DNA of 64,000 bases from Patescibacteria group bacterium. GTDB taxonomy: Bacteria; Patescibacteriota; Minisyncoccia; Phycocordibacterales; EsbW-18. This document shows, in pieces, positions 1-37,416 of the stretch (the stretch's first letter is position 1; every line of letters starts with the position of its first letter). Under the pieces are notes generated by a model. It saw only the letters and a program-made list of their open reading frames with translations, was not told where the DNA came from and did no database searches. The stretch lies in contig JBBTTA010000002.1 in the NCBI GenBank assembly GCA_038064475.1, positions 83,195 to 147,194 on the forward strand, read 5' to 3'. The translations under genes and the position numbers were made by a program.

Positions 1-2862
1 TCCCACATTGAAGGTTTCTACTATAAGCCACGCATAGATAAAGAACTTCTTGAAACACACAAAGAAGGGCTCCTTGCTATTATTCCTATCTTCAACGGAG
101 AAACATCTGCACCAATTGTCGGCGGCCGTCCGGACGAAGCCCTCGCAATCGTCAATTTTTATCGGAACCTCTACGGCAACGACAGTGTGTATCTTGAAAT
201 AACACATCACCCTGAAATCGACAATCATCAAGCGCTTGTCGATGCGACAATCAAATTTGGCCGTGAACACAGTGTGCCACTCGTTGCTACAAATGACGTT
301 CAATATATGAAGCCAGACGATGCCCCTGCGCGTCGTACGCTTCTTTCTATCCAATCTGGAGGAGATTTTGGTAGCCGTGGCGGTTTTGGTGACAACGATG
401 CAGATTTTTCATTTGTGAATGGAGAAACAATGCAGGAACGTTTTGCGAATGTTCCTGCAGCAATTGAAAATACACAAAAAATTGCTGATATGTGTAATGT
501 CACGTTCACGCTCGGTGAATGGAAGTTTCCTAACTACATTATTGAATCAGGACGCACTGCAGACGATGAATTTCGCACGCTTGCATACGAAGGAGTGGAG
601 CGGCGAAATTACAATTTCACACCTGAAGCGAAAGAGCGTCTTGAATATGAACTTTCCATCATCGCCAAAAAAGGATATGCGACATATTTTCTCGTCGTGG
701 CAGATCTTCTTCGTGTTGCTCGTGAGCGCGGGATTTTGACAACGATCCGTGGTTCGGTCGCTGGCTCACTCGCAACGTATCTCACCGGCATTACAAACGT
801 AGATCCGCTTGAATACAAATTGCCGTTCGAACGTTTTCTTAATCCTGATCGTCCGTCTGCTCCTGATATCGATATGGATTACGCTGATAATCGTCGTGAT
901 GAAATGATTACGTATGCGCGCGAAAAATATGGTGCGGACAAAGTCGCACAGATTGGTACGTTCGGAACAATGCTTGCGCGCGGCTCGGTGCGCGACGCCG
1001 CGCGCGCCCTCGGCTACGACGTTGGAACTGCTGACGGCATCGCAAAATTAATCCCCCTGGGTTCACAAGGATTCCCCATGACGATTGATCGCGCGCTCAG
1101 AGAAGAAAGTGAGCTCAAGAGAATGTATGAGAATGACGACGATGCCCGCCGCATCATCGATATGGCAAAGAAAATTGAAGGCTGTGCTCGTCACATCTCT
1201 GTACATGCCGCGGGTGTGGTTATTTCGCCAATCCCCCTCATTGAACTCGTCCCTTTGCAGTTTGATACGAAAGGAGAAGAAAAACTCATCACACAATTTG
1301 ATATGCATGCCGTCGGTGAAGACAACGTCGGCCTTCTGAAGTTCGACTTCCTTGGTATTCGAAACCTCGCGATTCTCGCTGATGCCGTCAAGCGCATGAA
1401 AAAGATTTATAACATTGATATCGATATCGAAAATATTCCGCTCGATGACCCAAAGACATTTGCAATGCTTGCGCGCGGCGAAACTGAAGGTCTCTTCCAG
1501 TTGAACGGCAGTGGTATGACCAAGTTCCTCGTTGAACTCAAACCAACAACCATCCACGACATCAACGCCATGGTTGCTCTCTATCGCCCTGGTCCGATCG
1601 AAATGATTCCGGAGTACGTCGCGCGCAAACACGATGCATCAAAGATTCGTTTCCTCGACGAGCGCATGAAATCAATTCTCGATCGTTCATACGGTGTGAT
1701 TACGTATCAGGACGACGTCATGTTGATTGCGATTGAGCTTGGTGGTTTTTCATGGATTGAAGCCGATAAACTCCGCAAAGCCATGGGTAAAAAGATTCCA
1801 GCCCTCATGGAAGAACAAAAAGTGAAGCTCACCGAGGGCTTGGTCAAAAACGGCATGTCACTTCAAAAAGCCGAGGAACTCTGGAAACTCATCGAGCCGT
1901 TTGCCGCGTACGGTTTCAACAAAGCCCATGCCGCAAGTTATGGACGTGTCGCCTACCAAACAGCGTACATGAAAGCGAACTACCCGAGCGTCTATATGGC
2001 ATCAATCCTTACGGCTGAAGCTGGTGATGTTGAGAAAATCGCTGAAATTATTTCAGAATGTAAGCGCATGCACATCGAAGTGTTACCGCCTGACGTCAAC
2101 GAAAGTTTCGGTCCATTTTCTGTGGTGCCAGAAAAAGATGGTGAGCCAGAAAAAATCCGTTTTGGTCTCTACTCAATAAAAAACTTTGGTGAGGGTGTTG
2201 CTGAAGCAATCATCGAAGAACGGAAAGCAAACGGCGTGTACGCATCTCTTGAGGATTTTCTCACACGCGTAAAAGATAAAAACTTAAATAAAAAATCACT
2301 TGAAGCACTTATTCAGTCTGGTGCCTTGGATGCATTCGGCGAACGAGGGCAAATGCTCGCAAACATCGATACGCTCCTCGCCCACCACAAACAATCACTT
2401 GTTTTAAACAAAGAACAAGATAGTTTGTTTGGCGGCGTTATGATGCCATTCTCTGCGCTTCGTTTGAAAGAAGCAGAGCCCGCAACAACGACAGATAAAT
2501 TGCGTTGGGAAAAAGAGTTGCTCGGTTTGTATGTTTCCGGACACCCCTTGGATGCACACAAAAAGTTCATGGATACCACAAATACGAATATTCAAAAGAT
2601 GAAAGGCTTACCACCCGGTGTCACCTCTGTCGTGTACGGTCTTGTTGAAGATGTGCGCGCCATTCTTACAAAAAAAGGTGACAAAATGGCATTCGTAAAA
2701 ATAAGTGATATGTCAGGAACGCTTGAAGTCGTCTTTTTCCCTAAATCATTTGAAGCATCAAAAAGCCTCCTCACTCCTGGTATGTGTCTCGGCATCAAAG
2801 GAAAAATCTCAAGCAGGAATGGTGAACTCTCAATGTTGGCAAACCACGCAAAAACACTCTAG
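1..2862 (+). CDS. dnaE: DNA polymerase III alpha subunit, 5'-partial (runs off window start)
   Basis: Frame 1 is open from nt 1 into ORF 187..2862. PHP and polymerase-core motifs seen (FGTMLARGSVRDAARALGY, HAAGVVIS, YRPGP). Stop TAG at 2860. Confidence 0.9.
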   Translation, partial: SHIEGFYYKPRIDKELLETHKEGLLAIIPIFNGETSAPIVGGRPDEALAIVNFYRNLYGNDSVYLEITHHPEIDNHQALVDATIKFGREHSVPLVATNDVQYMKPDDAPARRTLLSIQSGGDFGSRGGFGDNDADFSFVNGETMQERFANVPAAIENTQKIADMCNVTFTLGEWKFPNYIIESGRTADDEFRTLAYEGVERRNYNFTPEAKERLEYELSIIAKKGYATYFLVVADLLRVARERGILTTIRGSVAGSLATYLTGITNVDPLEYKLPFERFLNPDRPSAPDIDMDYADNRRDEMITYAREKYGADKVAQIGTFGTMLARGSVRDAARALGYDVGTADGIAKLIPLGSQGFPMTIDRALREESELKRMYENDDDARRIIDMAKKIEGCARHISVHAAGVVISPIPLIELVPLQFDTKGEEKLITQFDMHAVGEDNVGLLKFDFLGIRNLAILADAVKRMKKIYNIDIDIENIPLDDPKTFAMLARGETEGLFQLNGSGMTKFLVELKPTTIHDINAMVALYRPGPIEMIPEYVARKHDASKIRFLDERMKSILDRSYGVITYQDDVMLIAIELGGFSWIEADKLRKAMGKKIPALMEEQKVKLTEGLVKNGMSLQKAEELWKLIEPFAAYGFNKAHAASYGRVAYQTAYMKANYPSVYMASILTAEAGDVEKIAEIISECKRMHIEVLPPDVNESFGPFSVVPEKDGEPEKIRFGLYSIKNFGEGVAEAIIEERKANGVYASLEDFLTRVKDKNLNKKSLEALIQSGALDAFGERGQMLANIDTLLAHHKQSLVLNKEQDSLFGGVMMPFSALRLKEAEPATTTDKLRWEKELLGLYVSGHPLDAHKKFMDTTNTNIQKMKGLPPGVTSVVYGLVEDVRAILTKKGDKMAFVKISDMSGTLEVVFFPKSFEASKSLLTPGMCLGIKGKISSRNGELSMLANHAKTL

Positions 2863-3557: not shown

Positions 3558-5315
3558 ATGAAAAAGCACGACATGGCCTCGGATCTTGCGCCTATGCGCC
3601 ACACCCTCGCCCACCTTTTGGCTGCTGTTGTTTTGGATATCTATCCAGACGCCAAACCTACCCTTGGTCCTGCAATTGATACAGGTTTTTACTACGACTT
3701 TGAGTTTTCAAAACCGCTTCAGGAAGATGACCTCAAAAATCTTGAAGAGAAAATGCGTGACCTCCTTCCTTCATGGAAAGAATTTACACATGAAGAAGTT
3801 TCAAAAGAAGACGCACTTAAAAAGTTTGCTGGGAATATTTACAAAGAAGAACTTATCAATGAAATTGTTGAACGAGAAGAAACAATAACACTCTACACAT
3901 GCGGAGGTTTTACTGACCTTTGTCGCGGTGGACACGTTGATCATCCCGCAAAAGATATCGATGTCAACTCTTTCTCTCTTTCACATCTTGCCGGTGCGTA
4001 CTGGCGCGGTGATGAAAAAAACAAAATGCTTACTCGTGTATATGGTTTGGCGTTCACATCAAAAAAAGAACTTGATGCGTACAAAACACAGCAAGAGGAA
4101 GCAAAGAAACGCGACCACCGAAAAATTGGAAAAGAACTTGATTTGTTTACCTTCTCTGACTATGTCGGTAGCGGCCTTCCTCTTTACACACCCCGCGGTG
4201 CCCTCATCAGACGTCTTCTTAACGAATATATTGAATCTCTCCAGTCAAAAGAGGGTTATGAGCAAGTGTGGACGCCTCAGATGGCAAAAGCTTCACTTTT
4301 CAAACAATCAGGACATTACGATAAGTATAAAGACAGCATGTTCCGTGTTGTCTCAAACTACTCTGAGGAAGAGTTTTTCCTCAAGCCAATGAACTGCCCG
4401 CAGCACACTCAGATTTATGCAAGTTCGCCAAAGAGTTATCGAGATTTGCCTGTACGCTACACCGACTTTGCAATGCTCTACCGCGATGAGCAGCCTGGCC
4501 AGTTGAATGGTCTTGCACGTGTTCGTGCTTTCTCTCAAGACGATTGTCATATTTTCTGTCGCGAAGATCAGGTGGATGAGGAAATTGACACTGCACTTTC
4601 AATGACGAAAAAAGTTATGGCGACATTCGGTTTTAAGTATAAATATCGCCTCTCAACAAGAGATCCTAACGATCAGAGCAAATACCTTGGTGACCCTGAC
4701 ACATGGGACAAAGTAGAAGCATGGGCAGAAAAGATAATGAAGCGAAATGATATCGAATATTTCCCTGGCCCAGGCGAAGCATCATTCTATGCACCAAAAA
4801 TGGATCTCTTGGCAACAGATGCGCTTGGGCGAGAATGGCAACTTTCTACAGTACAGATCGACTTTGTGATGCCAGAGCGTTTTGATCTTACCTACACCGA
4901 TAAGGATGGGAAAGAAAAACACCCCGTCATGATTCACCGCGCTATTATCGGTTCTCCCGAGCGATTTATAATGATGCTTTTGGAACACTTTTCCGGCGCT
5001 CTCCCAACATGGCTCTCGCCTGTTCAGGTAAACGTTGTTCCTGTGAGCGAAGAACAATTTGAGTACGCACAGAAAGTAAACGATGTACTCAAGGACAAAG
5101 GCATTCGTGTTGAGTTTGATAATTCAAATGAAGGATTGGGGAAAAAAATCCGCTCATGGAAAGTATCGAAATCTCCATATGCGATTGTTGTTGGCAATAA
5201 AGAGGTTGAAAGCAACACTATTACTGTCGAACATCGCAACGGAACAAAAGAAGTACTTACCGTTGAAGCCTTTACAGAGAAACTCGAAGAAGAAATCAAA
5301 ACTCGCGCCCTCTAG
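3558..5315 (+). CDS. thrS: Threonyl-tRNA synthetase
   Basis: Class II aaRS motifs and a ThrRS-like catalytic core (HRKIGKELDLF, FRDEQPGQLNGLARVR). 585 aa. Confidence 0.9.
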   Translation: MKKHDMASDLAPMRHTLAHLLAAVVLDIYPDAKPTLGPAIDTGFYYDFEFSKPLQEDDLKNLEEKMRDLLPSWKEFTHEEVSKEDALKKFAGNIYKEELINEIVEREETITLYTCGGFTDLCRGGHVDHPAKDIDVNSFSLSHLAGAYWRGDEKNKMLTRVYGLAFTSKKELDAYKTQQEEAKKRDHRKIGKELDLFTFSDYVGSGLPLYTPRGALIRRLLNEYIESLQSKEGYEQVWTPQMAKASLFKQSGHYDKYKDSMFRVVSNYSEEEFFLKPMNCPQHTQIYASSPKSYRDLPVRYTDFAMLYRDEQPGQLNGLARVRAFSQDDCHIFCREDQVDEEIDTALSMTKKVMATFGFKYKYRLSTRDPNDQSKYLGDPDTWDKVEAWAEKIMKRNDIEYFPGPGEASFYAPKMDLLATDALGREWQLSTVQIDFVMPERFDLTYTDKDGKEKHPVMIHRAIIGSPERFIMMLLEHFSGALPTWLSPVQVNVVPVSEEQFEYAQKVNDVLKDKGIRVEFDNSNEGLGKKIRSWKVSKSPYAIVVGNKEVESNTITVEHRNGTKEVLTVEAFTEKLEEEIKTRAL

Positions 5316-6279: not shown

Positions 6280-6594
6280 TCAAAATTCAAATAACTTATC
6301 TGCAAAGTTTTCTATTCTGTCATTCTCATCAACTATAATTCCCTCTTTTTTATAGAGTGCCATACGCTTTTTTCTGTATTCACTGTTCACCCAAATCTTT
6401 CCATCAGCATACACAATGCGATGAAATGGAATCTCTACTCCTTCGTCGGCTGCTTTTCCTAAAATTGAAGTGATTGATTGTGCGGCTATTCCCCCGCTGC
6501 CAGCGGCGCGTGCAATTCGCCCGTATGTTGTCACACGACCTGCCGGAATCTTCTGTGCCGCTTTTACTACCCGCTCACTAAAAGAGTCTTTCAT
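6280..6594 (-). CDS. Alkyltransferase-like (MGMT DNA-binding domain) protein; active-site Cys replaced by Phe (IPFHRIV)
   Basis: TTYGRIA...IPFHRIV aligns with the MGMT C-terminal domain (PCHRV). Start taken at MKDSF (6594) because the upstream ORF extension overlaps tRNA-Glu. Confidence 0.6.
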   Translation of the reverse strand: MKDSFSERVVKAAQKIPAGRVTTYGRIARAAGSGGIAAQSITSILGKAADEGVEIPFHRIVYADGKIWVNSEYRKKRMALYKKEGIIVDENDRIENFADKLFEF

Positions 6595-6599
6595 TTTTG

Positions 6600-6671
6600 T
6601 GACCTCACGGGGAATCGAACCCCGATTACCGCCTTGAGAAGGCGATGTCCTGACCGTTAGACGATGAGGCC
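6600..6671 (-). tRNA. tRNA-Glu (anticodon CUC)
   Basis: Cloverleaf ggcctca/tgaggtc acceptor. Anticodon loop UUCUCAA. Close match to a canonical tRNA-Glu body. No CCA encoded. Confidence 0.85.
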
Positions 6672-6718
6672 GTGCGATTACAATAGCCGAGATATGGCTC
6701 TTTTTCAAGCAAAAATTG

Positions 6719-6986
6719 AGCCGTTGGCCGGGATTGAACCGGCGACCCCGTCCTTCGTGCTACCCACGTTTTTCATTCAAACGAATATTGCGTGGGGCTA
6801 GACTGTATGTCGAGCGTGCAGAGTGCGACGCTTCCCTTGTCAGTCGTTCGAGCCCTCTCAAAAGAGTGCTACGGTCTCAACCTATCGTTAGGCCATTAAC
6901 CGTTATTCGGGATTCGTTTTGAATGTTTCCATCCAAAAGGGCAAGATTTTACCATGGACGTGCTCTACCAACTGAGCTACAACGGC
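6719..6986 (-). tRNA. Split tRNA, probable tRNA-Thr (anticodon GGU), interrupted by a ~195-nt intron after position 36
   Basis: 5' exon gccgttgtagctcagttggtagagcacgtccatggt at 6986..6951. 3' exon aaggacggggtcgccggttcaatcccggccaacggct at 6755..6719. Joined exons give a 7-nt loop auGGUaa. Confidence 0.7.
6756..6950 (-). other. Probable group I self-splicing intron in the tRNA anticodon loop
   Basis: 5' exon ends in U and the intron ends in G (..gtagcacg). GC-rich and structured. GACCGU and CAGUCUAGCC-like elements recall group I P3/P7 regions. Confidence 0.5.
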
Positions 6987-7193
6987 TAGTGAGTGGACTC
7001 GCAGTTTGGGGCGTAGCTTTCGAGAAGCAGGCGTAGCCTTCGAGGGGAGAAAGAAAAGGAAGCTTGTTTACTTTTCTTTTGAATCGAGAAGGTGGGAGCT
7101 TGTATTCGAGAAAGCGGGAACCTGATTAACTATGAGCCACGAGCGAAGACGGTGTATCCGATACAACGGCTTTGCTCCTCCGTATCCTACACG

Positions 7194-7225
7194 AAAAAAC
7201 ACCTCCCGTCAGGAGGTGTTTTTTT
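7194..7225. terminator. Bidirectional rho-independent terminator aaaaaacacctcccgtcaggaggtgttttttt
   Basis: Perfect hairpin flanked by A and T runs. Confidence 0.7.
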
Positions 7226-7239
7226 GAAAAGTATTTCAA

Positions 7240-7932
7240 TTACATCTGCGCAGGAGCAGAAGGTGCAGTCGGTGCTGCGGGAGCAGGAGCAGGCATTGGC
7301 ATTGCTTTTGCCGCAAGCTCGATGTCATCACGACGATCAAGCTTCTTGTAGATATATGTAAGCGCAAGTATCGTCACCGGAATCGTAACGAGAAGTCCAA
7401 CACCAAAGAGAAGCGCGCCGAGAATGTTAATAACAATAGCGACAAGCATAAAACCAAAGAGGTTCCACTTGTGACCATCCGTCAAACGGCGGCTTTCCTT
7501 GAGTGTCTCTACAATACCCATGTGCTTCTCAAGTGTAATAAAGACAACCATTGAGAGCATAAGTTGTGCGATGATGCCTGGAACAATGAGCAATACAAAT
7601 CCGATAACAACAATGACACCGGTAAGGACCATCACAAGCGCAAATTTGTAGAGAGTCTCCCATTTCTCTGCAAACAACATCTTGAAGTTGATTGGGCGAC
7701 CTGCCTGTGCGTTAAGTGCGATGCGTGCGAAGCCAAGGTAAATCCACCACTGCACCAACACACTTACAACATCCACGACCACTTCAATAAGTCCGCCCGC
7801 ATTTTTGCCAATGTTGTCAACGACGATTGAAATAACAAGTGCCACAAGCGCAATACCTCCGTAAAGCCATGGTTCTTTCTTGAACGTGTTCCAGGCAAAC
7901 GTAAGCGCCTCTTTAATTGAAAAAGATTGCAT
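7240..7932 (-). CDS. Integral membrane protein (multi-TM), Pro/Ala-rich C-terminus
   Basis: 230 aa. Hydrophobic helices throughout. Ends ...MPMPAPAPAAPTAPSAPAQM. Confidence 0.55.
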   Translation of the reverse strand: MQSFSIKEALTFAWNTFKKEPWLYGGIALVALVISIVVDNIGKNAGGLIEVVVDVVSVLVQWWIYLGFARIALNAQAGRPINFKMLFAEKWETLYKFALVMVLTGVIVVIGFVLLIVPGIIAQLMLSMVVFITLEKHMGIVETLKESRRLTDGHKWNLFGFMLVAIVINILGALLFGVGLLVTIPVTILALTYIYKKLDRRDDIELAAKAMPMPAPAPAAPTAPSAPAQM

Positions 7933-7985
7933 AATCTCGGTTTATGTAATAACACCTTTATTTTACCACAGCACCCCCCCAGTGT

Positions 7986-8435
7986 TTACGATCCTATACT
8001 CCTTCGCACAGGGTGCATATGAGCCGCTATAGCGAGCGCAGAGGCGATAATTGCGAGGTTTTTGATGATATATTGCCCTTCAAGTGTTGGGACAAAAGGC
8101 GCCTGCCACGTGATTTCCGGCAACATAAAGAGTGGCATGAACGTCATTGCCATGTGGATGAAAAGAAGCGGAATGACAACACGCTCCGTTCCCTTAATGA
8201 GGAAGAGAATCCCAATAAGACATTCGAATGCCGCGAAGAGCATGAAAAAGACGTCAAACGACATGAATGAGATTGTCTGTGTATAGAGATTGCGAACCAG
8301 CCCCGCAGCAGGGCTCATTCCAAGGAGCTTCAAAAGACCAAACCAAAAAAAGATAACAAAGAGGCCAAAACGGGCAACCGGAACGGTCAGGTTCCGTGCA
8401 AGGTGCACTAGTCCTCTATCTAATGGTCCAATCAT
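7986..8435 (-). CDS. Small membrane protein (DoxX-like, 4 TM)
   Basis: 149-aa hydrophobic ORF. Confidence 0.5.
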   Translation of the reverse strand: MIGPLDRGLVHLARNLTVPVARFGLFVIFFWFGLLKLLGMSPAAGLVRNLYTQTISFMSFDVFFMLFAAFECLIGILFLIKGTERVVIPLLFIHMAMTFMPLFMLPEITWQAPFVPTLEGQYIIKNLAIIASALAIAAHMHPVRRSIGS

Positions 8436-8606
8436 ACTAGGATTATTTTCTCATGATTTAGAAACATTAAAAGCACCCTGGACACTAAAAGAGGATAATT
8501 GATTTTTAGGTCAATTCTGGTAATATCATCAGAGTCTGGAGTCGTAAGCGAAGGGTTCGTCGTAAGCGAAGCTTCCACCTCCAGCATTCAGACCACATAG
8601 TCAATC

Positions 8607-8679
8607 GGGCTCCCCTCATCTCGACGGCGAGAAAAAGTAAGCGAGCTTCCTTTTTCTCTTCTCTCGATGACTACGCCCT
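8607..8679 (+). repeat. tRNA-upstream ~73-nt repeat, copy A (gggctcccctcatctcgacggcgagaaaaagtaagcgagcttcc...ctacgccct)
   Basis: About 90% identical to 9022-9094; diverged third copy at 9175-9230. Each lies 25-40 nt upstream of a tRNA or tRNA 5' fragment. Confidence 0.55.
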
Positions 8680-8702
8680 AGAACTGCGTGTCATCTTCAT
8701 TT

Positions 8703-8779
8703 GGAGTCGTAGCTCAACTGGTTAGAGCGCTTCCCTGTCACGGAAGAGGTTGCGGGTTCGAGTCCCGTCGATTCCGCCA
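8703..8779 (+). tRNA. tRNA-Asp (anticodon GUC), CCA encoded
   Basis: ggagtcg acceptor, D-arm tagctcaactggttagagc, loop CUGUCAC, T-arm gcgggttcgagtcccgt, 3' gattccgcca. Confidence 0.9.
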
Positions 8780-8869
8780 AAATTGACATTTTGGACGGGA
8801 CGAGAAGGCCGGAGTCTACCGTAGGTAGACGAGGCGGGGTCGCGAACACTTAACGAGTCGTCGAGTTTA

Positions 8870-8902
8870 GTGATTCGTGACCGAGTCCCGTCGATTCCGC
8901 CA
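8870..8902 (+). repeat. Junction motif gtgattcgtgacc followed by a 20-nt duplicate of the tRNA-Asp 3' end (gagtcccgtcgattccgcca)
   Basis: Exact direct repeat of 8760-8779, 104 nt downstream. att-like scar. The same junction is seen at 10245 and at 48243 on the minus strand. Confidence 0.6.
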
Positions 8903-9021
8903 AAAAGAGCCGCCTCGCTAAATCGCGAGGCGGCTTCTGCTTTTCCTATTTTTATTGTAGAATGCGACAGCGCTGTTGTATAAGGTATACGTCAGCGCTT
9001 CGGACTTACATGACCAGTCTT

Positions 9022-9094
9022 GGGCTCCCATCATCTCGACGGCGAGAAAAAGTAAGCAAGCTTCTTTTTTCTCTTCTCTCGATAACTACGCCCT
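9022..9094 (+). repeat. tRNA-upstream repeat, copy B, followed by a tRNA-Met 5' fragment gctgacgta at 9117-9125
   Basis: Near-identical to copy A. The downstream 9-mer equals positions 1-9 of the tRNA at 9272. Confidence 0.5.
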
Positions 9095-9174
9095 GGGTCG
9101 CGTATCATCCTCATATGCTGACGTAAGAGTGAAGACCCTCTTTCCTCAGCGGCACTCCAAGCATATACCCCTCG

Positions 9175-9230
9175 CGCTCCCATTTTCGTCTTCTCGAGCC
9201 GGAAAATAAGCAAGCTTCCTTCCATCTCTC
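9175..9230 (+). repeat. tRNA-upstream repeat, diverged copy C
   Basis: gctcccattttcgtcttctcgagccggaaaataagcaagcttcc resembles copies A and B. Precedes tRNA-Met. Confidence 0.4.
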
Positions 9231-9271
9231 TAAAACGAAAACCGCGCTCGAGGTGCATGCAATACTCGTTT

Positions 9272-9345
9272 GCTGACGTAGCTCAGTTGGTTAGAGCGAG
9301 GGACTCATAAGCCCTAGGTCGCTGGTTCGATTCCAGCCGTCAGCA
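9272..9345 (+). tRNA. tRNA-Met (anticodon CAU; elongator Met or Ile2-lysidine type)
   Basis: gctgacg/cgtcagc acceptor with a G1-C72 pair. Loop CUCAUAA. T-arm gctggttcgattccagc. Confidence 0.8.
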
Positions 9346-9565
9346 CAAAATTTTTAGGCTGGAATCGAACCCGAGGGAATAAGACATGGGCTGGCGTAAT
9401 GACGCAAGACCGGCGTGCGACAACGTGAAGTTGGATCGCGAAGCTTTCAGTAAGAAAGTACTCGTGACCGAGGAAACCGTAGTTTTCCCTTGCCGACAGG
9501 CAGGGCGCACTCGCAAGTCTATATAAAAACAAATATCTCACTTACCCGTTAAATAAAAAAGAGGC

Positions 9566-9949
9566 CTAACGGCCTCTTTTTTGTAACTCAGGAAGACGCT
9601 CCAGAAGCACCTTAAGAGGAACCGAACTACCAACACCCTTTACGATGTCGACCATACGGAGCAAATCATTCTCACTCAAGTTAATATCAGGGAGCATCAA
9701 CTTTCGCATACGAAGTTGTCGCATACCGAGAAGCAGTTCTGCGTCTTCTTGAGAGAGTTCACATATCGCCATCAGATTCGGCAACTTCTTCTTGGGAAAG
9801 TTCCGATGCGCACAGAGGATTGCGTTGTAGAACGCACCAATCTTCTTACCGTTTCCAAGTTCAAGAAAACGCGCAAACGCATCCCGTGTCATGCCAAGCT
9901 TTTCTCGAGCCCGCTCGAGAATGCGTCCCAATGTGTCGTATTTGGGCAT
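9566..9949 (-). CDS. Small HTH (XRE-like) DNA-binding protein
   Basis: Start taken at MPKYDTLGRILERAREKLGMTRDAFA (HTH), because the ORF-track N-terminal extension overlaps a tRNA. Stop lies inside terminator hairpin 9558-9585. Confidence 0.45.
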   Translation of the reverse strand: MPKYDTLGRILERAREKLGMTRDAFARFLELGNGKKIGAFYNAILCAHRNFPKKKLPNLMAICELSQEDAELLLGMRQLRMRKLMLPDINLSENDLLRMVDIVKGVGSSVPLKVLLERLPELQKRGR

Positions 9950-10038
9950 AGAACCTCCACTGTCAAAAACATCTATTCTATATTGTAGCAAAGAATACTT
10001 GTTAAAAAGAGTCTCATGTTCTATACTCTTTGCTACGC

Positions 10039-10110
10039 AGCGGGGTAGAGCAGTAGTAGCTCGCAAGGCTCATAACCTTGAGGTCGCAGGTGCAATTCCT
10101 GCCCCCGCAA
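10039..10110 (+). tRNA. tRNA-Met, CAU anticodon, 1:72 A:A mismatch (possible initiator type)
   Basis: Acceptor agcgggg/ccccgca, D-arm gagcagtagtagctc, loop CUCAUAA, T-arm gcaggtgcaattcctgc. Confidence 0.75.
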
Positions 10111-10244
10111 CAATCGTTCGCCTAGTCCTATTGAAACGCACGGATAAAATCCTACTGGATTTTTCCTCGTACTCGCGCCGTCGCGCTCGCAAGTCGTTTC
10201 AAGAGGATAAGCTCACTTACACGTTCAATTCAAAGAAAATAACA

Positions 10245-10277
10245 GTGATTCGTGACCAAATTCCTGCCCCCGCAACA
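10245..10277 (+). repeat. Junction gtgattcgtgacc followed by a duplicate of the tRNA-Met(10039) 3' end (aattcctgcccccgcaaca)
   Basis: 19-nt direct repeat of 10092-10110, about 150 nt downstream. Followed by terminator cgcccccaagggcg. Confidence 0.6.
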
Positions 10278-10312
10278 AGATACAAAAAAAACGCCCCCAA
10301 GGGCGTTTTTTG

Positions 10313-11374
10313 TTATTCTTCCACTTGTGGCTTCTCAATCGAAAGTATTTCAATACCTCCTGTTTCTCCAGCAATACGAACAACGTCTTTGTCTATTTTT
10401 CCGAGTTCTTTATGAGCGGTATTGAAATGATTGACTGTTGTCCCAAGTGCGTTACCGAGTTTCAGCATAAATGCATTGTGATTAGCTATGTGACGACCAA
10501 GTTCCCCAACACGCTTCTGAATTTCTTTTGCTTGTTCCTCAATCTGTAGTCCACGGAGTCCCTGGAGCACCGTCTGGAGGTACGCAACAAATGTTGTTGG
10601 AGAAACAATAATAACTTTGTATTCTTTGTACGCTCGTTGGATAAGATTCGACTCTCCGTCGTCACCTCCCACAACACCAACTTTATTTGACAGTAAGTCG
10701 TAGTAAATACTTTCTGATGGAATAAACATGAACGCAAAGTCCATTGTATTTTCCGCAGGACGAATATACTTACTCGTTTCCTTAATACGCAGTTTTAAGT
10801 CATTAACAAATGCTTTCTCAAGTCGTATCTTTTCTTCTGCATCGCGCGATTCAATGAGCCGGCGATAATTTTCGAGAGAAAATTTTGAGTCAATAGGCAA
10901 AACTTTTTTGTCTCGGAGAAAGATTACCGCATCAACAATCTCACCGTTCTGGAAAGGATATTGCAGAACATACTGATCTGGCGCGAATATGTCTTGCAGA
11001 ACCTTTTCAAGATAATATTCACCAAGCGCCCCACGTTGCTTTGAATTTTGGAGAATATCTTGAAGACTTTGGAGTTGGTCAGCGAATGACACCACCTGTT
11101 TGTTTGTCTCATCAAGCTTTGTAAGACCTTCCGTCACCTCTTTTACAATGCGTGTCGATTCACCAAGCTGTGCGCGTATTGATTCATGCATCGTCTTCGC
11201 ATTCTCGCCCAACTTCATATCAACCGTGCGTGAAAGCTCATTAATTTGTTGCAATACGAGATCGAGTCCCTGCGATGGTTTCGTCTCTTCCTGTTTTTTG
11301 CGAAGGAAAAACCACACAACGCCTGCATTGAGCAAAACGATAAGTATCGCAAAAACGAGTGTCTCGGTATTCAT
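10313..11374 (-). CDS. rmuC: DNA recombination protein RmuC
   Basis: N-terminal TM, long coiled coil, and a conserved C-terminal RmuC core (FMFIPSESIYYDLL...VSPTTFVAYLQTV). Start taken at MNTETL, because the track start overlaps the next gene. Confidence 0.75.
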   Translation of the reverse strand: MNTETLVFAILIVLLNAGVVWFFLRKKQEETKPSQGLDLVLQQINELSRTVDMKLGENAKTMHESIRAQLGESTRIVKEVTEGLTKLDETNKQVVSFADQLQSLQDILQNSKQRGALGEYYLEKVLQDIFAPDQYVLQYPFQNGEIVDAVIFLRDKKVLPIDSKFSLENYRRLIESRDAEEKIRLEKAFVNDLKLRIKETSKYIRPAENTMDFAFMFIPSESIYYDLLSNKVGVVGGDDGESNLIQRAYKEYKVIIVSPTTFVAYLQTVLQGLRGLQIEEQAKEIQKRVGELGRHIANHNAFMLKLGNALGTTVNHFNTAHKELGKIDKDVVRIAGETGGIEILSIEKPQVEE

Positions 11375-20139: not shown

Positions 20140-20345
20140 CGGATAAAGGTTCTGTGGAACCTGTGTTAGCTCCTCGGCTCGGAGGTATAAAAGAGTACTT
20201 TTATACCTCTCTCGCTCTACGTCGCTAATAAAATCCTACTGGATTTTTCCTCGTACTCGTGCCGCCGCACTCGCAAGTCTTTATAAAAACAAATATCTCG
20301 TTTACCCGTTAATACAAACAGGTTGACAAACAACCTGTTTTTTGG
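20140..20345 (+). repeat. Intergenic repeat element (gcacggataaa ... aaaatcctactggatttttcctcgtactcg..ctcgcaagtc ... ttacccgttaa plus terminator), copy 3
   Basis: Shares 40-60-nt blocks with 10128-10200 and 9505-9560. Ends with hairpin aaacaggttgacaaacaacctgttt. Confidence 0.5.
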
Positions 20346-32160: not shown

Positions 32161-33402
32161 TTAGTATTCCGCACGCAATGCACGCTCAAGACGTCGGTTG
32201 CTTGATATCTCACAAGTGTTGTAGCCACGGGCAACAATTGTTGTTGACGAAGTGTTCTTTGTCACCGTTACTAGTGCACAACGGCCGTCTTCAAGTGAAA
32301 GGTCAAATGTAGTTGTTGCCGATTCTCCACTCGATTCAGACACCCATGCAAGCGGATTACCATTAGAATCTTCATACCAGCCTGTTTCTGGATCTGAAAT
32401 GTCAGCTTCTGCACAGAGAATATTGCTCATTTCTGCAACGGGTGGCACAAAAATATTATTCGCGTCTCCCGCAACGATTGCATCAATTTCCTCATCTGAA
32501 AGTGCGCGGTTGTAAATACGAAGATCATCAAGCGTACCTGAATACCACCCAGCGTTGCCACCGTTTTGTCCTATAAACTGTACACTAAAGTCCCCCCCAC
32601 TAGTTCCAAGAGAAGTGGGAGCCCCACCATTCACCTGAACCTGTAGACTATTATCTGCCTTTCGGATAACAACAAAATGTGTCCATCCTGAAAAAGATGC
32701 TGGCATATCGGCTTCATGATTCTGCGCGTCGATACGCAAGCGATATTTGTTTTGAGTAGTAAAGACAAAAGAAAATCGATCCGAGGCTCCTGACTTTGCA
32801 ACTATCGTACGTCCTCCTCCAGTTTGCGTCGGAAGCTGTGGCTGTGCCCAAAAAGAAACAGTGAACTCCCCTGCATATGACGTTTCTTCTTCTAACCCCA
32901 CATAATCGCCCGCTCCATCGAAGGAAAGTGCGTCATTGATATATCCGGGAATCCTGTTTGGACCGTCAGAACCGTTAATACCGAGAATAAGCCCGTCATT
33001 ATTTCCCGATCCTGTATCAAACACATCATCACCAGATCCTTCATCCATACGCCAATAGTTTACGATGCCCGACGCAAGAGAGTCCCCGTAAAAACCGAAT
33101 GCAGGCGATAGACCGTCATATTGCAAATCCCAATAGAGTGCACATTCAAGCGCGGTGTCCGCAGCATAAAATGCATTTTGTGATTCGCGCGCATCTGAAG
33201 TAAGAATAAGTTCCTTAAGCGTAATGTTGTAGACAGCAAGACCAAGCGCGAGCAAAAGTGACGTCACCAAGACAGCGTAGAAAAGCGTAAAACCACGCGA
33301 CACGCGAAGCGCGCGTCGCGTGAAATAACAAATAACAGAAAACAGGCAACAAAAACGTTGTGTTTTGTTTTCTGTTTTCTGTTTTCTGTTTTCTGTTGTC
33401 AT
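32161..33402 (-). CDS. Minor pilin-like protein with a LamG (concanavalin-like) domain; long leader ending SRG|FTLF
   Basis: GFTL plus a hydrophobic helix. LDDLRIYNRALSDEEI matches LamG. Start chosen at MTTENRKQK; the track ORF extends to 33429. Confidence 0.5.
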   Translation of the reverse strand: MTTENRKQKTENKTQRFCCLFSVICYFTRRALRVSRGFTLFYAVLVTSLLLALGLAVYNITLKELILTSDARESQNAFYAADTALECALYWDLQYDGLSPAFGFYGDSLASGIVNYWRMDEGSGDDVFDTGSGNNDGLILGINGSDGPNRIPGYINDALSFDGAGDYVGLEEETSYAGEFTVSFWAQPQLPTQTGGGRTIVAKSGASDRFSFVFTTQNKYRLRIDAQNHEADMPASFSGWTHFVVIRKADNSLQVQVNGGAPTSLGTSGGDFSVQFIGQNGGNAGWYSGTLDDLRIYNRALSDEEIDAIVAGDANNIFVPPVAEMSNILCAEADISDPETGWYEDSNGNPLAWVSESSGESATTTFDLSLEDGRCALVTVTKNTSSTTIVARGYNTCEISSNRRLERALRAEY

Positions 33403-33403
33403 G

Positions 33404-33985
33404 CTATTCCCAATTATAGATAAACTCATTCATCGTCACGTTGCGTTGTGCAATTCCTTCATACCATTCGACTCGCGTTGTTACTTTTATTTCTTTATCA
33501 GTGCGCACATTCTCAATCCATGTTGTGCGACGAAATGCTGAATCAACTCCTTCCCCGTATCCATACACGTATGTTGTTGTGTTATACGTCATAATCGGAC
33601 ACTGATCTAGACAATCTCTTACCTCTGACGTAGAGATATCGATATAACATCCATCTTCTACTTGGCAATCCTCAAGTGTCGTAAGCCAGTCATTTCCTGT
33701 CAATGCGTTGGTGTCGCGTGTCGCGCGAATAAATTCGATCGTTTCTTGTGCAAGATAAATTGCAGTCACTTGATTGCGTGCAACGCGCGATGCGGCAAGA
33801 CTTTGATACACAAGAGACAATGGGGCGGTCACCGCCAACAAAAGTACGGCGATTGCCACCAATGTTTCAACGAAAGTAAAACCCCGAATCATGAAGCGAG
33901 AATCATGAATCATGCCAAAAAAGTTTCCGTTATCTTGATTCTTGATTCTTGATTCTTGATTCATAATTGTATTGTGTGATTTCAC
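33404..33985 (-). CDS. Type IV (pseudo)pilin-like protein; prepilin site G|FTFVETL; long leader MNQESRIKNQD..FFGMIHDSRFMIRG
   Basis: Class III signal motif with E5. Start uncertain: GTG at 33985, ATG M8, or ATG M25. Confidence 0.55.
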   Translation of the reverse strand: MKSHNTIMNQESRIKNQDNGNFFGMIHDSRFMIRGFTFVETLVAIAVLLLAVTAPLSLVYQSLAASRVARNQVTAIYLAQETIEFIRATRDTNALTGNDWLTTLEDCQVEDGCYIDISTSEVRDCLDQCPIMTYNTTTYVYGYGEGVDSAFRRTTWIENVRTDKEIKVTTRVEWYEGIAQRNVTMNEFIYNWE

Positions 33986-34611
33986 TATCGATCAAGGAGC
34001 CTTTGTGTAATAAGCGTCTGGAGACTAAATACGGTACGTGTCTTGCCCTCCGGTCCTGCAAATCCCTGAAAAACCAAAAGAACGCGAGGCTGTTCGTTGT
34101 CCGTTGAACGCTCTCCTCTAACATAAAACTTCAATACTTCGATATCAACCTCAGGCGCCGTGAGAGCTAGATAGTTAATACCCCCATCGGTTGACCGCTC
34201 AAGACTCATGTCCGTTTTGTTAAACCGATAGTGAATCTCTTCTCCATCAGTTGAAAGGAAGTTAAACTCTTCCGTGCCTTGATCGGGGTCACACGACGAA
34301 ACCCCACAGTCGTACGCAGTCCCCACGCGAATGGCGCGCGTCATACTATCAAGCGCGAAGTTGAGATTGTTCATAACCGATTTCACGCTCTGTGCCTTTC
34401 GGTTTGCCTCAACAATTGAAACAAGAGCCCCTGTCGCAATAAGCATCACAATAGAAAAAATAAACACAGAAACAATCATCTCAACAAGCGTGAACCCGCG
34501 CGACGCGCCGCTTGCGCGACGCGCAGAAAAACAGAGAACAGAGAACAGAGAACAGATCGTTTCATGTGTGTTTTTTGTTTTCTGTTTTTTGTTTTCTGTT
34601 TTCTGATTCAT
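33985..34611 (-). CDS. Type IV (pseudo)pilin-like protein; prepilin site SRG|FTLVEM; 39-aa Cys-containing leader
   Basis: Only one in-frame ATG. Leader MNQKTENKKQKTKNTHETICSLFSVLCFSARRASGASRG. Confidence 0.55.
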   Translation of the reverse strand: MNQKTENKKQKTKNTHETICSLFSVLCFSARRASGASRGFTLVEMIVSVFIFSIVMLIATGALVSIVEANRKAQSVKSVMNNLNFALDSMTRAIRVGTAYDCGVSSCDPDQGTEEFNFLSTDGEEIHYRFNKTDMSLERSTDGGINYLALTAPEVDIEVLKFYVRGERSTDNEQPRVLLVFQGFAGPEGKTRTVFSLQTLITQRLLDR

Positions 34612-34614
34612 ACA

Positions 34615-35226
34615 TTATTCTTTTACCTCTTCAAGTTCATGCCGTATTGAAAACTGCCCTGTGGATTCGATGAACACATAGCGTTGGCCTCCGCGTACTG
34701 ACACAATACCAACAGCGGCGCGTCCTATGGTACCGCGTTCAATAATAGCGTCGGGTTCAGGGCGCTCGAATACTATCGTCAACTCATCAAGATCACACCC
34801 GGTTCCTTCGAGATCACAAATCGGTTGAATAATTGCACCACGACCGAGTGTGTATGTCTCAAGGAGCTCGTTTGCGTCATAAAAGCCGTCGTTGTCCCTG
34901 TCGATAAAGAACTTATATGTTGTCGTACCGTTTTCAAAAAAGATGCCGTACGGATCATCGAACCCTCCTTGATCTGTGCGTACGTTTATTCCATAGCTTT
35001 GTGCTTTACGAACCGACAATGCAACATCGTATGCCATATTCGTAAGAAGTACTTCATCATCAAACTTTGAGTTTCGCGTGATGATGACTGAAGAAATGAG
35101 AGCAAAAATAGCAACTGTCACGAGCATTTCAATGAGCGTGAAGCCGTGAATCATGAAGCAAGAATCATGAATCATGCTAAAAAACCTTTTCTGGTCCTGA
35201 TTCTTGATTCTTGATTCTTGATTCAT
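34615..35226 (-). CDS. Type IV (pseudo)pilin-like protein; prepilin site HG|FTLIEM; leader MNQESRIKNQDQKRFFSMIHDSCFMIHG
   Basis: Start chosen at MNQ (35226), 2 nt after the pilD stop. The track ORF extends to 35322. Confidence 0.55.
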   Translation of the reverse strand: MNQESRIKNQDQKRFFSMIHDSCFMIHGFTLIEMLVTVAIFALISSVIITRNSKFDDEVLLTNMAYDVALSVRKAQSYGINVRTDQGGFDDPYGIFFENGTTTYKFFIDRDNDGFYDANELLETYTLGRGAIIQPICDLEGTGCDLDELTIVFERPEPDAIIERGTIGRAAVGIVSVRGGQRYVFIESTGQFSIRHELEEVKE

Positions 35227-35227
35227 A

Positions 35228-36031
35228 TTAGGAGATGTATCCGATGAGCGTGAGAATATCAATTGATCCGAAGAGGACAATAAGCAATCCGAGAATAAGA
35301 AACGGAGCGAAAGGAACCTCACTCTTCATTGTAAGCCCCGAGCTGCCCCACCGCAAACGAGTTTTCGACAGAATAATGAGAGCAAGGCTCACTAATGCAC
35401 CTGACCAAAACGCCCAAATAAGCGCGGAGATCGAACCAAGAATCCCGAGCATAAAACCAATACCAAGGGACAATTTTGCATCACCAAAACCCATCCACCG
35501 CCCGCCTGAGACAAACCACAAGAATGCAAACGGAAATGCTGCAATTAATCCTGAAACAAAAGGATACCACCATGGAGCATACGGAATGATTGCGTACGGC
35601 ATAAATCCGTATGATAGTGCGAGCGCAGCAAATGTATACACAAGGCTGTCCGGAATGATGGTGTGGCGAATGTCGTAGACGGTGATTACAACAAGAATAC
35701 TCATAATAAATGCAAGATGAAGTGCGTGGAGTGGGATGAGAATTCCTGCCGAGAATGCTTTAGAGAGAGCGAGTGTGAAAAGAATACCGGTGAGTATTTC
35801 AACAATCGGATACTGCCATGAAATGTGCGCACAACATGCACGACAGCGGCCGCGCTGAAAGAGAAAGCTAAAAAGTGGAATAAGTTCAAACCACCGCAAT
35901 ACGTGTCTGCACGAACCGCATGATGATCGCCCCCCCAGACCACGCCCTGTACGAAAACGAAGTACGACCACGTTAAGAAAACTACCAATGAGAAGTCCGA
36001 AAAGAAAAGCGAAAATAAGAAACAACGACAT
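35228..36031 (-). CDS. pilD: Prepilin peptidase (A24 family)
   Basis: N-terminal CxxC...CxxC zinc-binding motifs. Multi-TM. ...DIRHTIIPD... aspartyl protease region. Confidence 0.8.
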   Translation of the reverse strand: MSLFLIFAFLFGLLIGSFLNVVVLRFRTGRGLGGRSSCGSCRHVLRWFELIPLFSFLFQRGRCRACCAHISWQYPIVEILTGILFTLALSKAFSAGILIPLHALHLAFIMSILVVITVYDIRHTIIPDSLVYTFAALALSYGFMPYAIIPYAPWWYPFVSGLIAAFPFAFLWFVSGGRWMGFGDAKLSLGIGFMLGILGSISALIWAFWSGALVSLALIILSKTRLRWGSSGLTMKSEVPFAPFLILGLLIVLFGSIDILTLIGYIS

Positions 36032-36190
36032 ATATACAGTATACCCAGCACTTACAATCTAAAACAGGGATATCTCGGAACATCGAACATGTTTTTATCC
36101 ATCTTTTTGAAAGAAACTTTTAGTAAGTGCCGGGTATACAGGAAAACAAAAAACCCCTTTCGGGGTTTTTGTTTTGTGTGCGAAGGAGAG

Positions 36191-36640
36191 TTATGGTCGT
36201 ACGCAGTAAAATGGAGATGTTGTGTCCTGACAATCAATTCCAAGTGCGTCTGCATCATCAACATCACCATCTAAGACCGTGTTTTGTGTATCTTCAAGTT
36301 GTGCGCGAAGTACATATGTTGTTGCCGTTCCCGAATACATATATATCCCTGCGGCAGTTGGGTCTATAGGAATTGCTTGCATAAACCCACTTGTGACAAG
36401 TGCCGCACCTGCGACTGATGTTGAAGCGAGTGTGCCTGCCGCCTCTACTGGATACGTACGATTCGAGTCGAAGTACAGCTCAAGTGCAAGTTTCACCTGA
36501 CCCATATCAGAAACACGTTTCGCATCACGGCCCTTCAAACGTGCGCTGTTGAGTGACGCCAACACAACTGATGAGAGAATACCGATGATGGCGATAACCA
36601 CCAAGAGTTCAATCAATGTAAAACCTTTTTGTTGTTTCAT
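36191..36640 (-). CDS. pilA: Type IV major pilin
   Basis: MKQQKG|FTLIELLVVIAIIGIL canonical class III signal. C-terminal Cys pair. Confidence 0.85.
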   Translation of the reverse strand: MKQQKGFTLIELLVVIAIIGILSSVVLASLNSARLKGRDAKRVSDMGQVKLALELYFDSNRTYPVEAAGTLASTSVAGAALVTSGFMQAIPIDPTAAGIYMYSGTATTYVLRAQLEDTQNTVLDGDVDDADALGIDCQDTTSPFYCVRP

Positions 36641-36657
36641 ATCTTGTAATTAATATA

Positions 36658-37092
36658 CTACGGTCGCACGCAGTAGTACGCTATCGGTGTGTCAGAACAA
36701 TCGGTGTTTGCAGTACCGTTTGATGTTCCATCAATGTCTCCCACCAATGTGACGTGGTTTGCGTCTTCAAGTGCTGCACGGAGAACGTATGATGTGGCAT
36801 TGCTTGCAGCTGCCGAGTAGAGGTATTGTTCACCACTTACTGGTGGAACGGGAAGCGCCGGCATGTAGCCTCCTGTTACCAACGAGCTTGATGCTGCTGG
36901 GTATGCGCGGTTTGAGTCGAAGTAGAGTTCAAAAGCAACGCGCATTTGGCCGAGGTCAGAAACACGCTTTGCATCACGGCCCTTCTGACGTGCGCTGTTA
37001 AGAGATGCCAACACAACTGATGAGAGAATACCGATGATGGCGATAACCACCAAGAGTTCAATCAATGTAAAACCTTTATTTTTTCCTTTCAT
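36658..37092 (-). CDS. pilA: Type IV major pilin (paralog)
   Basis: MKGKNKG|FTLIELLVVIAIIGIL. C-terminal CSDTPIAYYC. Confidence 0.85.
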   Translation of the reverse strand: MKGKNKGFTLIELLVVIAIIGILSSVVLASLNSARQKGRDAKRVSDLGQMRVAFELYFDSNRAYPAASSSLVTGGYMPALPVPPVSGEQYLYSAAASNATSYVLRAALEDANHVTLVGDIDGTSNGTANTDCSDTPIAYYCVRP

Positions 37093-37342
37093 GGATTATT
37101 AATTAAATGTTCAAACTTATAAATGCTTAATAACGTAAGCGTGTATTCATTATAGTTGAAGCTAGGGCTGGGGCACCACCCCCTGTGGATAAAGGCCATT
37201 CGGCCCTGCCTTTGGAAAATGCACGCGTCCGCGGCTGCTGCCACGGCGCTCCCGCTCGGGCCGTCGCCCTGCGCAAGACATTTCCCAAAGGACGGCCTCA
37301 TTCAAGCGTTTTAGGAATCAAAAATCATGAATTAAAGGAGGT

Positions 37343-37385: not shown

Positions 37386-37416
37386 ATTCTTGATTCCAGC
37401 TTCTTGATTCTAGCTT

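Follow-up and report, generated by a model that had tools for sequence, protein, structure and literature searches.

Islands and prophages of the T-loop class, which are moved by tyrosine integrases, insert at the 3' ends of tRNA and tmRNA genes, restore the gene that they enter and leave a direct repeat running from the T-loop to the gene end; they accumulate in tandem and carry defense cargo, and tmRNA is said to be a typical target. A second group, CTX phage and the integrative mobile elements exploiting Xer (IMEX), has no recombinase of its own and relies on host Xer acting on a folded attP, in which an inverted repeat of the target lies about 90 nt apart at one end; the structure is strand-specific, and integration is irreversible with accumulation of copies. 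Integron cassettes place cargo ahead of an attC site, an imperfect inverted repeat of 60-140 nt that is also strand-specific, and form arrays at one locus. The logic common to the CTX phage attP and integron attC is a duplex target rebuilt by a folded single strand. Here we describe small elements behind tRNA genes in a 64,000-nucleotide stretch of a Patescibacteria group bacterium (GenBank assembly GCA_038064475.1, contig JBBTTA010000002.1, positions 83,195 to 147,194; the whole stretch is referred to as the window). Geometrically these elements come nearest to tRNA-integrating islands, and their logic is nearest to that of folded single-strand att sites; they belong to neither group.

The window contains five intact tRNA genes, for which ARAGORN and Rfam agreed. 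As a preliminary description of this DNA had pointed out, the 3' ends of three of the five (tRNA-Asp, tRNA-Met and tRNA-Ser) recur downstream as exact duplicates. These measure 24, 20 and 20 nt and lie 102, 147 and 1927 nt past the gene, respectively. A 20-nt exact repeat within 64 kb is not chance. The genes, their near (working) 3' ends and the displaced far copies are:

8703-8779, plus strand: tRNA-Asp(GTC), found by ARAGORN and Rfam
8759-8782, plus strand: near copy of the Asp 3' end, its last 24 nt with 3 trailing A counted
8882-8905, plus strand: far copy of the Asp 3' end, from C56 to CCA plus AAA; 24 nt exact, 102 nt past the tRNA
10039-10111, plus strand: tRNA-Met(CAT), with the near copy of its 3' end at 10094-10113
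10259-10278, plus strand: far copy of the tRNA-Met 3' end; 20 nt exact, 147 nt past the tRNA
50171-50257, minus strand: tRNA-Ser(GCT), its near 3'-end copy lacking CCA (GCC followed by TTCG)
48243-48224, minus strand: far copy of the tRNA-Ser 3' end; 20 nt exact, 1927 nt past the tRNA and running into CCA (GCCAAG)

Directly 5' of each far copy stands the same motif, ...TCGTGACC, which occurs 6 times in the window compared to 2.3 expected. The Asp and Ser elements additionally have in common a right-end block of ~50 nt, GAGGCGGGGTCG...ACTTA...TTAGT.A.TCGTGACC. Both similarities had been recognized earlier, as had the start of the duplicate in the T-loop. The point at which motif and copy had been divided required correction, since the far copy begins at T-loop position C56 and the last C of 'gacc' is therefore part of the copy. 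The motif itself is no integrase arm site; it is the 3' strand of helix P3 in a conserved three-way-junction module of ~90 nt.

The anatomy of the module was derived from side-by-side reading of cases in 80 fetched loci of relatives together with the window, a set that spans 1.3 Mb and 64 tRNAs (loci outside the window are given L numbers below). From gene to copy, the order is tRNA, trailer, antisense arm S' (...N'TCGAA), conserved domain and the copy from C56 to the 3' end. The S' arm, which matches the T-loop and the 3' T-stem strand in antisense, has an N' that tracks tRNA base 59 and is often split by a small hairpin with the loop AACTGCTT. The conserved domain reads GGAG ... GAG.C-GG-GGTCGCG ... 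YGTGAC, and the module as a whole can be written (antisense of tRNA T-loop/T-stem)-GAAR-P2-GG-P3-(C56 to 3' end of tRNA). Consensus folds computed with RNAalifold, from the first 6 copies and then from 60, consist of P1, in which the antisense arm pairs with the tRNA-end copy, followed by the junction GAAR; P2, which has the base G-N-C/G-N'-C, a GGA/GA internal loop and a variable hairpin, followed by GG; and P3, in which GGTCGCG... pairs with ...YGTGACC around a bulged A and a variable tip. A single long hairpin takes in everything from T54 to the end of the antisense arm. The inverted copies of the target, namely the antisense arm and the 3'-end copy, lie ~90 nt apart and are able to fold as a duplex that mimics the target.

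Several measures on the 60-sequence alignment support this fold. Standard pairs fill 91.2% of cells compared to 71.8% in column shuffles, none of 500 of which scored as high; sliding the partners by 1-3 columns lowers the paired cells to 31-46%; the covariation score is 0.529 against 0.173; and both-sided changes are found in 18 of 29 pairs. Pairs left free by the search pattern described below covary cleanly. The middle pair of P2 is CG in 57, AT in 26, GC in 24 and TA in 4 of 113 copies, and the closing pair of the P2 hairpin is GC in 38 and AU in 19 of 60. One G.T pair is invariant, while a second position in P3 is G-C or G.T (27/33). Read from the other strand, these G.T positions would be A.C mismatches, which assigns the fold to the tRNA-sense strand. 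No Rfam family matched the modules, either across the window at the gathering threshold or in 6500-10400 at E<=10, where only noise was returned. Hammerhead, HDV-like, kink-turn, group I/II intron and bridge RNA structures were compared by eye and set aside, as their junction lengths and conserved nucleotides misfit. Many loci (e.g. L087, L098, L103, L119 and L165) possess a small optional hairpin, (A)AGCGTACTCGCGG, which separates A58 from the T-stem in the far copy and comes right after GTGACCGA, and GCGAAGC recurs at hairpin tips throughout the elements.

Modules of this kind, termed type A, were scored with a covariance model, R1, built from 60 copies. The parts of the three window elements, together with a fourth, divergent case, are:

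8793-8804, plus strand: antisense arm S' of the Asp module, GGACGGGACGAG, complementary to GTCCCGTC
8795-8891, plus strand: type-A three-way-junction module of the Asp element (R1 64.3 bits, E 2.8e-18), laid out as P1, GAAG, P2 (8808-8837), GG and P3 (8838-8882)
8870-8882, plus strand: Asp junction motif GTGATTCGTGACC, the 3' strand of P3, which pairs with GGTCGCGAA at 8838-8846 and includes one G.T pair
8907-8943, plus strand: strong intrinsic terminator past the Asp far copy
9357-9478, plus strand: divergent module with T-arm antisense behind a second tRNA-Met (R1 12.7 bits, E 0.12)
10244-10257, plus strand: 14-nt remnant of a type-A P3 strand, AGTGATTCGTGACC, in the Met element
10286-10311, plus strand: terminator past the Met far copy
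50170-50095 (approximate), minus strand: hairpin past tRNA-Ser, its 3' arm CGAAGGCGGGGA antisense to the acceptor end
48478-49878, minus strand: cargo of the Ser element, comprising a radical-SAM (pVip-like) open reading frame (ORF) at 48961-49878 and a 107-aa ORF at 48478-48801
48429-48437, minus strand: TGCTAGAAT, which resembles an extended -10 promoter element
48322-48310, minus strand: S' arm of the Ser module, GAGGGGATTCGAA
48234-48321, minus strand: type-A module of the Ser element (R1 68.1 bits, E 1.8e-19)

The S' arm of the Asp module spans the 3' T-stem strand and some of the T-loop, and P1 is formed with the far copy. RNAfold gave -52.6 kcal/mol (z -4.2) for the Asp module and -40.2 (z -2.0) for the Ser module. 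We looked for a terminator between tRNA-Asp and its module and found none there. The Met element retains just the last 14 nt of a module, and a different repeat makes up the remaining spacer. Past the other tRNA-Met (9272-9346), a 15-nt T-arm antisense at 9357-9371 leads into the divergent module, which ends GTACTCGTGACC and is not followed by a 3'-end copy. A related motif had been noted at 9455, and this 'gtactcgtgacc' is indeed the P3 strand of that divergent module. As previously described, the Ser element is the one that carries cargo (pVip). The motif TGCTAGAAT falls within a block of ~60 nt common to the Ser element and the cargo element of L163 (about 2800-2830, minus strand), about 110 nt upstream of the module in both; judged by its letters, it could drive either the module or a downstream gene. 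A further motif recorded at 46586, 'ttgattcgtgacc', does resemble the junction: at 46586-46603, past a long palindrome between convergent genes, TTGATTCGTGACC is identical to the Asp junction at 12 of 13 positions. No module or tRNA end lies around it, and it represents a remnant or a chance match; by a rough estimate, a 12/13 match would arise by chance with a probability of about 0.07.

Weaker relatives of the module, termed type B, make up a repeat family with members at 10129-10204 (minus strand), 20228-20321, 9506-9561 and 37212-37288 (minus strand). Model scores for the family are weak (23-26 bits) and the closing helices match no tRNA; one copy lies behind efp and one between pilus genes. 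Two of them are, in detail:

10129-10204, minus strand: type-B relative inside the Met spacer, on the strand opposite to the tRNA (R1 25.9 bits, E 6e-6); 93% identical over 55 nt to 20228-20282 (repeat families D16 and D18)
37212-37288, minus strand: stand-alone, intergenic type-B module (R1 23.5 bits, E 4e-5), located between two genes and closed by the helix TTTGGGAAAT/ATTTTCCAAA, which is unrelated to any tRNA

The type-A architecture is not peculiar to the window. Among the 64 tRNAs of the comparison set, 10 have an exact 3'-end copy of at least 14 nt located 100-200 nt downstream (the copy of window tRNA-Ser lies at 1.9 kb), and 16 have an antisense copy of the T-loop/T-stem in the trailer. 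A search of metagenome contigs with one strict pattern recovered the type-A core in at least 120 contigs. Among the matches listed, 96 of 122 modules have a same-strand tRNA 30-90 nt upstream, representing 19 amino-acid types, and most of those without an upstream tRNA are cut by contig ends; 5 lie behind the 3' end of tmRNA, one with a perfect antisense arm of 21 nt. Module polarity is always tRNA-sense. Likewise, R1 gave 19 matches in 1.26 Mb of loci from related Patescibacteria metagenome-assembled genomes (MAGs), and those inspected adjoin tRNA genes. The strict pattern had 0 matches in IMG/VR, where a loose pattern returned only chance matches in high-GC coding sequence, and blastn against phage and plasmid collections found no module. 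Our literature search for published descriptions of the modules found none and gave only a paper on group I introns in Patescibacteria tRNAs. Taken together, these findings describe a large, structured and apparently undescribed family of small elements at tRNA and tmRNA 3' ends that encodes no protein. They also bear on what the preliminary description made of the short elements, which it regarded as decayed remnants: the module of ~100 nt is a conserved unit, a covarying three-way junction in >120 contigs.

The preliminary description had further held that a motif plus duplicate present at most tRNAs, or a spacer kept in synteny among distant relatives, would speak against insertion. Each was observed in part, since the architecture occurs at 19 amino-acid types plus tmRNA, and in L001 a tRNA-Met beside RmuC, the same neighborhood as in the window (RmuC 65% identical), has a spacer of 150 nt and a 3'-end copy. 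Relatives of the RmuC that adjoins tRNA-Met in the window all come from MAGs of Patescibacteria (Parcubacteria/Paceibacteria), at 54-67% identity, and the gene content of the window is cellular (RecA, FtsK, aminoacyl-tRNA synthetases and type IV pilus genes). Through an exact match of its pVip protein, the window was located on a 158-kb contig obtained from Hainich groundwater.

Several features of the loci argue for insertion. Every one of 38 perfect copies starts exactly at C56, with a modal length of 19 nt (C56 to nt 74). The far copy often has a full CCA where the near copy is without it (L105, L110, L153, L155 and the window Ser element), which fits the view that the far copy is the original gene end. 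Far copies decay, with a mean of 4.3 of 7 identical bases in the acceptor part and 8.5 of 10 in the T part; at loci whose near and far copies are not identical, the arm matches the working tRNA 24 times and the far copy 3 times. Occurrence is patchy: of 36 species compared at an orthologous tRNA-Glu next to RmuC, about 15 have a module, and these modules are of several different core types. Modules also occur in tandem, with three units in L061 and two each in L014 and L171. In some arrays, what comes past the far copy is similar to the near element's left end, a pattern that repeated insertion into one gene would be expected to leave. In L163 and L026, 0.75-3.2 kb of cargo, including opposite-strand genes, lies between two module copies. 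Copies truncated at the 5' side are exemplified by the second copy of L026, which starts inside P2, and by the 14-nt Met remnant in the window. Modules behind tRNA-Arg and tRNA-Gly in L089 have a P3 with 1 mismatch in 64 nt, whereas P2 and both arms differ, and one of the antisense arms mismatches its own tRNA at base 59; this combination indicates that the arm travels with the element and that the far copy is local. Finally, in L019 (about 4380-4470, minus strand) and L038 (about 8200-8420, minus strand), an additional, decayed tRNA-Glu copy precedes the intact gene and contains a type-A module in its D-loop (GTGAC joined to TAGGAC), and that of L038 contains a second in the anticodon region, indicating that the T-loop is not the sole entry point.

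Patchy occurrence, arrays and a decaying far copy match an attL/attR-like geometry, and the earlier view is sound in that the insertions at tRNA 3' ends form a single family, every member of which goes with a displaced duplicate of the gene end. We favor, tentatively and with somewhat less than even confidence, the interpretation that these are non-autonomous elements directed at the T-loop, each bringing a replacement 3' end for the tRNA and being recognized as a folded single strand. What the loci show directly is the anatomy, with its conservation and covariation on the tRNA-sense strand, together with the fixed C56 junction, the decay of far copies, the tandem and cargo forms and the patchy occurrence. 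Mobility, dependence on functions supplied elsewhere and single-strand recognition are what we infer from the loci, as are the joining enzyme and the nature of the strand, which may be DNA or RNA. On this interpretation, a full element starts with the replacement 3' end (C56 to about nt 74), followed by a trailer, often with a terminator-like hairpin, by one or more antisense arms to the acceptor and T-stem/T-loop, and by the junction domain (GAAR, P2 with its GGA/GA internal loop, GG, and P3 = GGTCGCG...YGTGACC); cargo such as pVip sits between the left hairpin and the junction domain. The joint with the chromosome lies exactly between T55 and C56, such that the gene body keeps a working 3' end and the original end is displaced downstream as a relic. 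Were the near 3' end derived from the element, it should at times have variants foreign to the host lineage, of which L071 (CCTCC against CCCTC) would be an example. On the single strand, the replacement 3' end and the antisense arm would rebuild a duplex copy of the target beside the junction domain, and an enzyme encoded elsewhere, perhaps an Xer-like tyrosine recombinase or an HUH/Y1 enzyme, would carry out the joining. Such a mechanism would explain the strand-specific conservation, the match of the arm to the near copy and the sharp right junction, as well as the lack of an own recombinase, the arrays and the irreversible accumulation with decay.

A mobilizing enzyme was sought in several places. 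Pfam detected no integrase, reverse transcriptase or DDE/DEDD transposase among 43 scanned ORFs of the window, which also has no Xer gene, and no integrase is found inside the Asp, Met or Ser elements. The scanned cargo ORFs of L026 and L163 include no enzyme of these kinds either; one L026 ORF considered as a fragment of a serine recombinase had no Pfam support. Of 125 ORFs located next to modules in other loci, the 25 families listed as most recurrent are housekeeping ones with no recombinase or reverse transcriptase among them, a tyrosine integrase is present in no more than one ORF, and, as in the window, no DEDD/IS110 recombinase is found. The window does encode one enzyme of the HUH type:

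61799-62473: Y1 (IS200-like) transposase ORF (Pfam Y1_Tnp, E 4e-7)

This ORF lies among seven copies of a palindrome, CTTGGAGGCTAAGCCTCCAAG, resembling repetitive extragenic palindromes (REP), across 61789-63160, an arrangement that looks like a REP/RAYT system.

Set beside the systems introduced above, the elements resemble tyrosine-integrase islands in their place at the gene, the direct repeat, gene restoration, tandem accumulation, defense cargo and use of tmRNA, and differ from them in their size (100-200 nt), in having no integrase inside or adjoining, in the folded three-way junction that abuts the chromosome junction, in the antisense copy of the target and in their range of 19 tRNA types. 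With CTX phage and IMEX they have in common the inverted repeat of the target, the lack of an own recombinase, the strand-specific structure and the irreversible accumulation; unlike these, they are directed to the T-loop rather than dif, their spacer is a conserved junction domain, they have no phage genes or Rep, and a part played by Xer is putative. Imperfect, strand-specific inverted repeats, cargo ahead of the site and arrays at one locus are traits shared with integrons. They lack the RYYYAAC/GTTRRRY core and the IntI of integrons, their ends being NTCGAA ... GTGAC followed by CGA; their sequence is conserved besides their structure, and their arms copy the neighboring tRNA. REPIN/REP-RAYT systems (Y1 HUH) and IS200/IS605 ends are similar in being small, non-coding, strand-specific hairpins mobilized in trans, and the window has a Y1_Tnp gene. 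However, its palindromes are unrelated to the module, and REPINs are not bound to tRNAs and leave no 19-nt repeat. The bridge RNA of IS110 is likewise a folded RNA in which target-matching segments flank an inner stem-loop. Here, in contrast, there is no DEDD recombinase, the fold comprises just one three-way junction, the flanking repeat measures 19 nt rather than 2 nt, and the arms are mutually complementary over the same target segment instead of matching adjacent halves.

A number of observations weigh against the folded-element interpretation. No mobilizing enzyme was found in or beside the elements; the only Y1 gene of the window has palindromes of its own, unrelated in sequence to the module, and Y1_Tnp showed no association with modules among the 125 neighboring ORFs of other loci. 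Neither an excised or circular form nor a donor was seen, and IMG/VR and the phage and plasmid collections yielded no phage or plasmid form. An empty-site allele of the Ser element was not seen in population contigs retrieved by exact-protein look-ups, all of which carry the element or break inside it; several population contigs break inside a module or at a tRNA end. How the target changes across 19 tRNA types is not explained by this interpretation. Mismatches between arm and tRNA show no G.T bias (53 G.T vs 42 A.C), a result that also counts against a role as RNA. Lastly, some features of the module are more readily associated with RNA, and these are considered together with the alternative that they favor.

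That alternative, which we consider unlikely albeit well worth weighing, is that the module is a functional RNA in the tRNA trailer, co-transcribed with the tRNA and acting in processing or stability, as a folding switch or as a mimic of the acceptor/T-arm, with copies arising by duplication. The antisense arm would pair with either the 3' half of the tRNA or the downstream copy, and the junction, perhaps bound by a protein or ligand, would decide between them. Junction nucleotides that are purine-rich and strongly conserved, like the invariant G.U pair, are more usual in functional RNAs than at sites of DNA recombination, and the GA-rich internal loop and strong covariation point the same way, as does the tRNA-sense polarity of all modules. 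With no terminator ahead of it, the module behind tRNA-Asp should be co-transcribed, and a terminator follows right after the far copy. The antisense arm stays complementary to the working tRNA; the extended -10-like motif lies upstream of the module in two cargo elements; the tRNA-Met beside RmuC of a distant relative has a spacer and copy; and type-B relatives stand alone between genes, closed by generic helices, as small-RNA genes would. In contrast, a canonical hairpin and T-run separate tRNA and antisense arm in many copies, about half of the orthologous tRNA-Glu genes have no module and the core types differ among the rest. Tandem arrays, truncated copies and opposite-strand cargo (L026) are unexpected of a regulator, and the far copy, which a switch needs, decays.

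About as doubtful is a reading in which the antisense arm is a true guide. The module would then be a programmable, protein-less cassette, as RNA or as a folded strand, sent to a matching tRNA or tmRNA. Its task there would be either insertion, with the enzyme supplied from another locus, or, as a switch of three segments (tRNA 3' half, antisense arm and copy), control by the junction domain over folding or maturation of its own tRNA.

Spread through RNA, in the manner of a SINE (short interspersed element) or a ribozyme, strikes us as improbable. Here the module RNA, with a tRNA 3' segment at its end, would anneal to a tRNA gene or attack the T-loop of a tRNA, and a reverse transcriptase supplied in trans would copy it back into DNA. 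The sharp 3' junction and variable or truncated 5' ends are consistent with this, as are the structural constraint at the level of a single strand, the lack of coding capacity and the correspondence of the copy to a 3' fragment of the tRNA (C56 to nt 74). However, no reverse transcriptase was found in the window or among the neighboring ORFs, and opposite-strand cargo genes (L026 and L163) would be hard to carry by one RNA. The antisense arm, moreover, pairs with the genomic trailer and not the CCA end, for which reason we also rejected the idea that it is a primer-binding site.

We regard as still less probable the model of the preliminary description, in which the elements belong to a tyrosine-integrase family and most copies are integrase-less decay products. 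In its favor are the direct repeat that starts in the T-loop, the cargo, the arrays, the far copy with CCA and the use of tmRNA as an additional target. However, no integrase was found in any element examined, be it the three window elements or the cargo of L026 and L163, nor among the 43 window ORFs, and no recombinase family recurs among the 125 neighboring ORFs. The virus, phage and plasmid collections gave no match, the short form is under structural selection rather than decaying, and no inverted recombinase-binding site lies directly upstream of the copy. The remnant view is therefore not supported. Very improbable, finally, is that there is no element and that replication template switching at the terminator hairpin and TTCGAA T-loop palindromes made the direct-inverted-direct arrangement, which is shaped as an inverted triplication with both switch points at hairpins: a conserved, covarying junction domain of 75 nt at the same position in >120 loci and 19 tRNA types would be left unexplained, and versions without that domain, which should be common, were not seen.

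A sizeable share of tRNA genes in tiny Patescibacteria genomes from groundwater carries modules, as do tmRNA genes. If the modules are mobile, as the folded-element interpretation holds, they would constitute a miniature element of a new kind that lands safely in essential RNA genes by bringing its own replacement gene end, and that ferries defense genes such as pVip without an encoded recombinase. This would in turn imply an unrecognized mobilizing enzyme and, for an uncultured phylum, a possible path of gene flow. Should the modules instead be functional RNAs, they would represent a widespread new class of structured RNA tied to tRNA biogenesis, and, if the antisense arm is a guide, Patescibacteria would have a novel class of element or regulator that tRNA sequence programs. 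In practical terms, modules break assemblies, as population contigs end inside them, and their tRNA fragments confuse annotation.

Other features of the window concern its tRNA genes. A unit of ~73 nt lies upstream of four of them, at 8607-8679, 9022-9094, about 9168-9248 and 7054-7099 (minus strand); two of the copies are 95% identical, and the motif CTCGA-NNN-CTACGCC recurs. Past the unit at 9022, a duplicate of the first 9 nt of tRNA-Met (GCTGACGTA) is present at 9118, suggesting that tRNA 5' ends are duplicated as well. A tRNA-Thr(GGU) missed by ARAGORN lies at 6717-6986 (minus strand) and contains an insertion of ~195 nt (about 6756-6950) between positions 36 and 37, in which the Rfam group I intron model detects nothing. 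'Divergent group I introns' at 36/37 of tRNA-Thr have been reported for Patescibacteria (PMC13011429), and the insertion in the window matches that report. Elsewhere, at 33283-37424, runs of 7-nt tandem repeats (of the TTTTCTG and TCTTGAT types) are found at the ends of several pilin-like genes.

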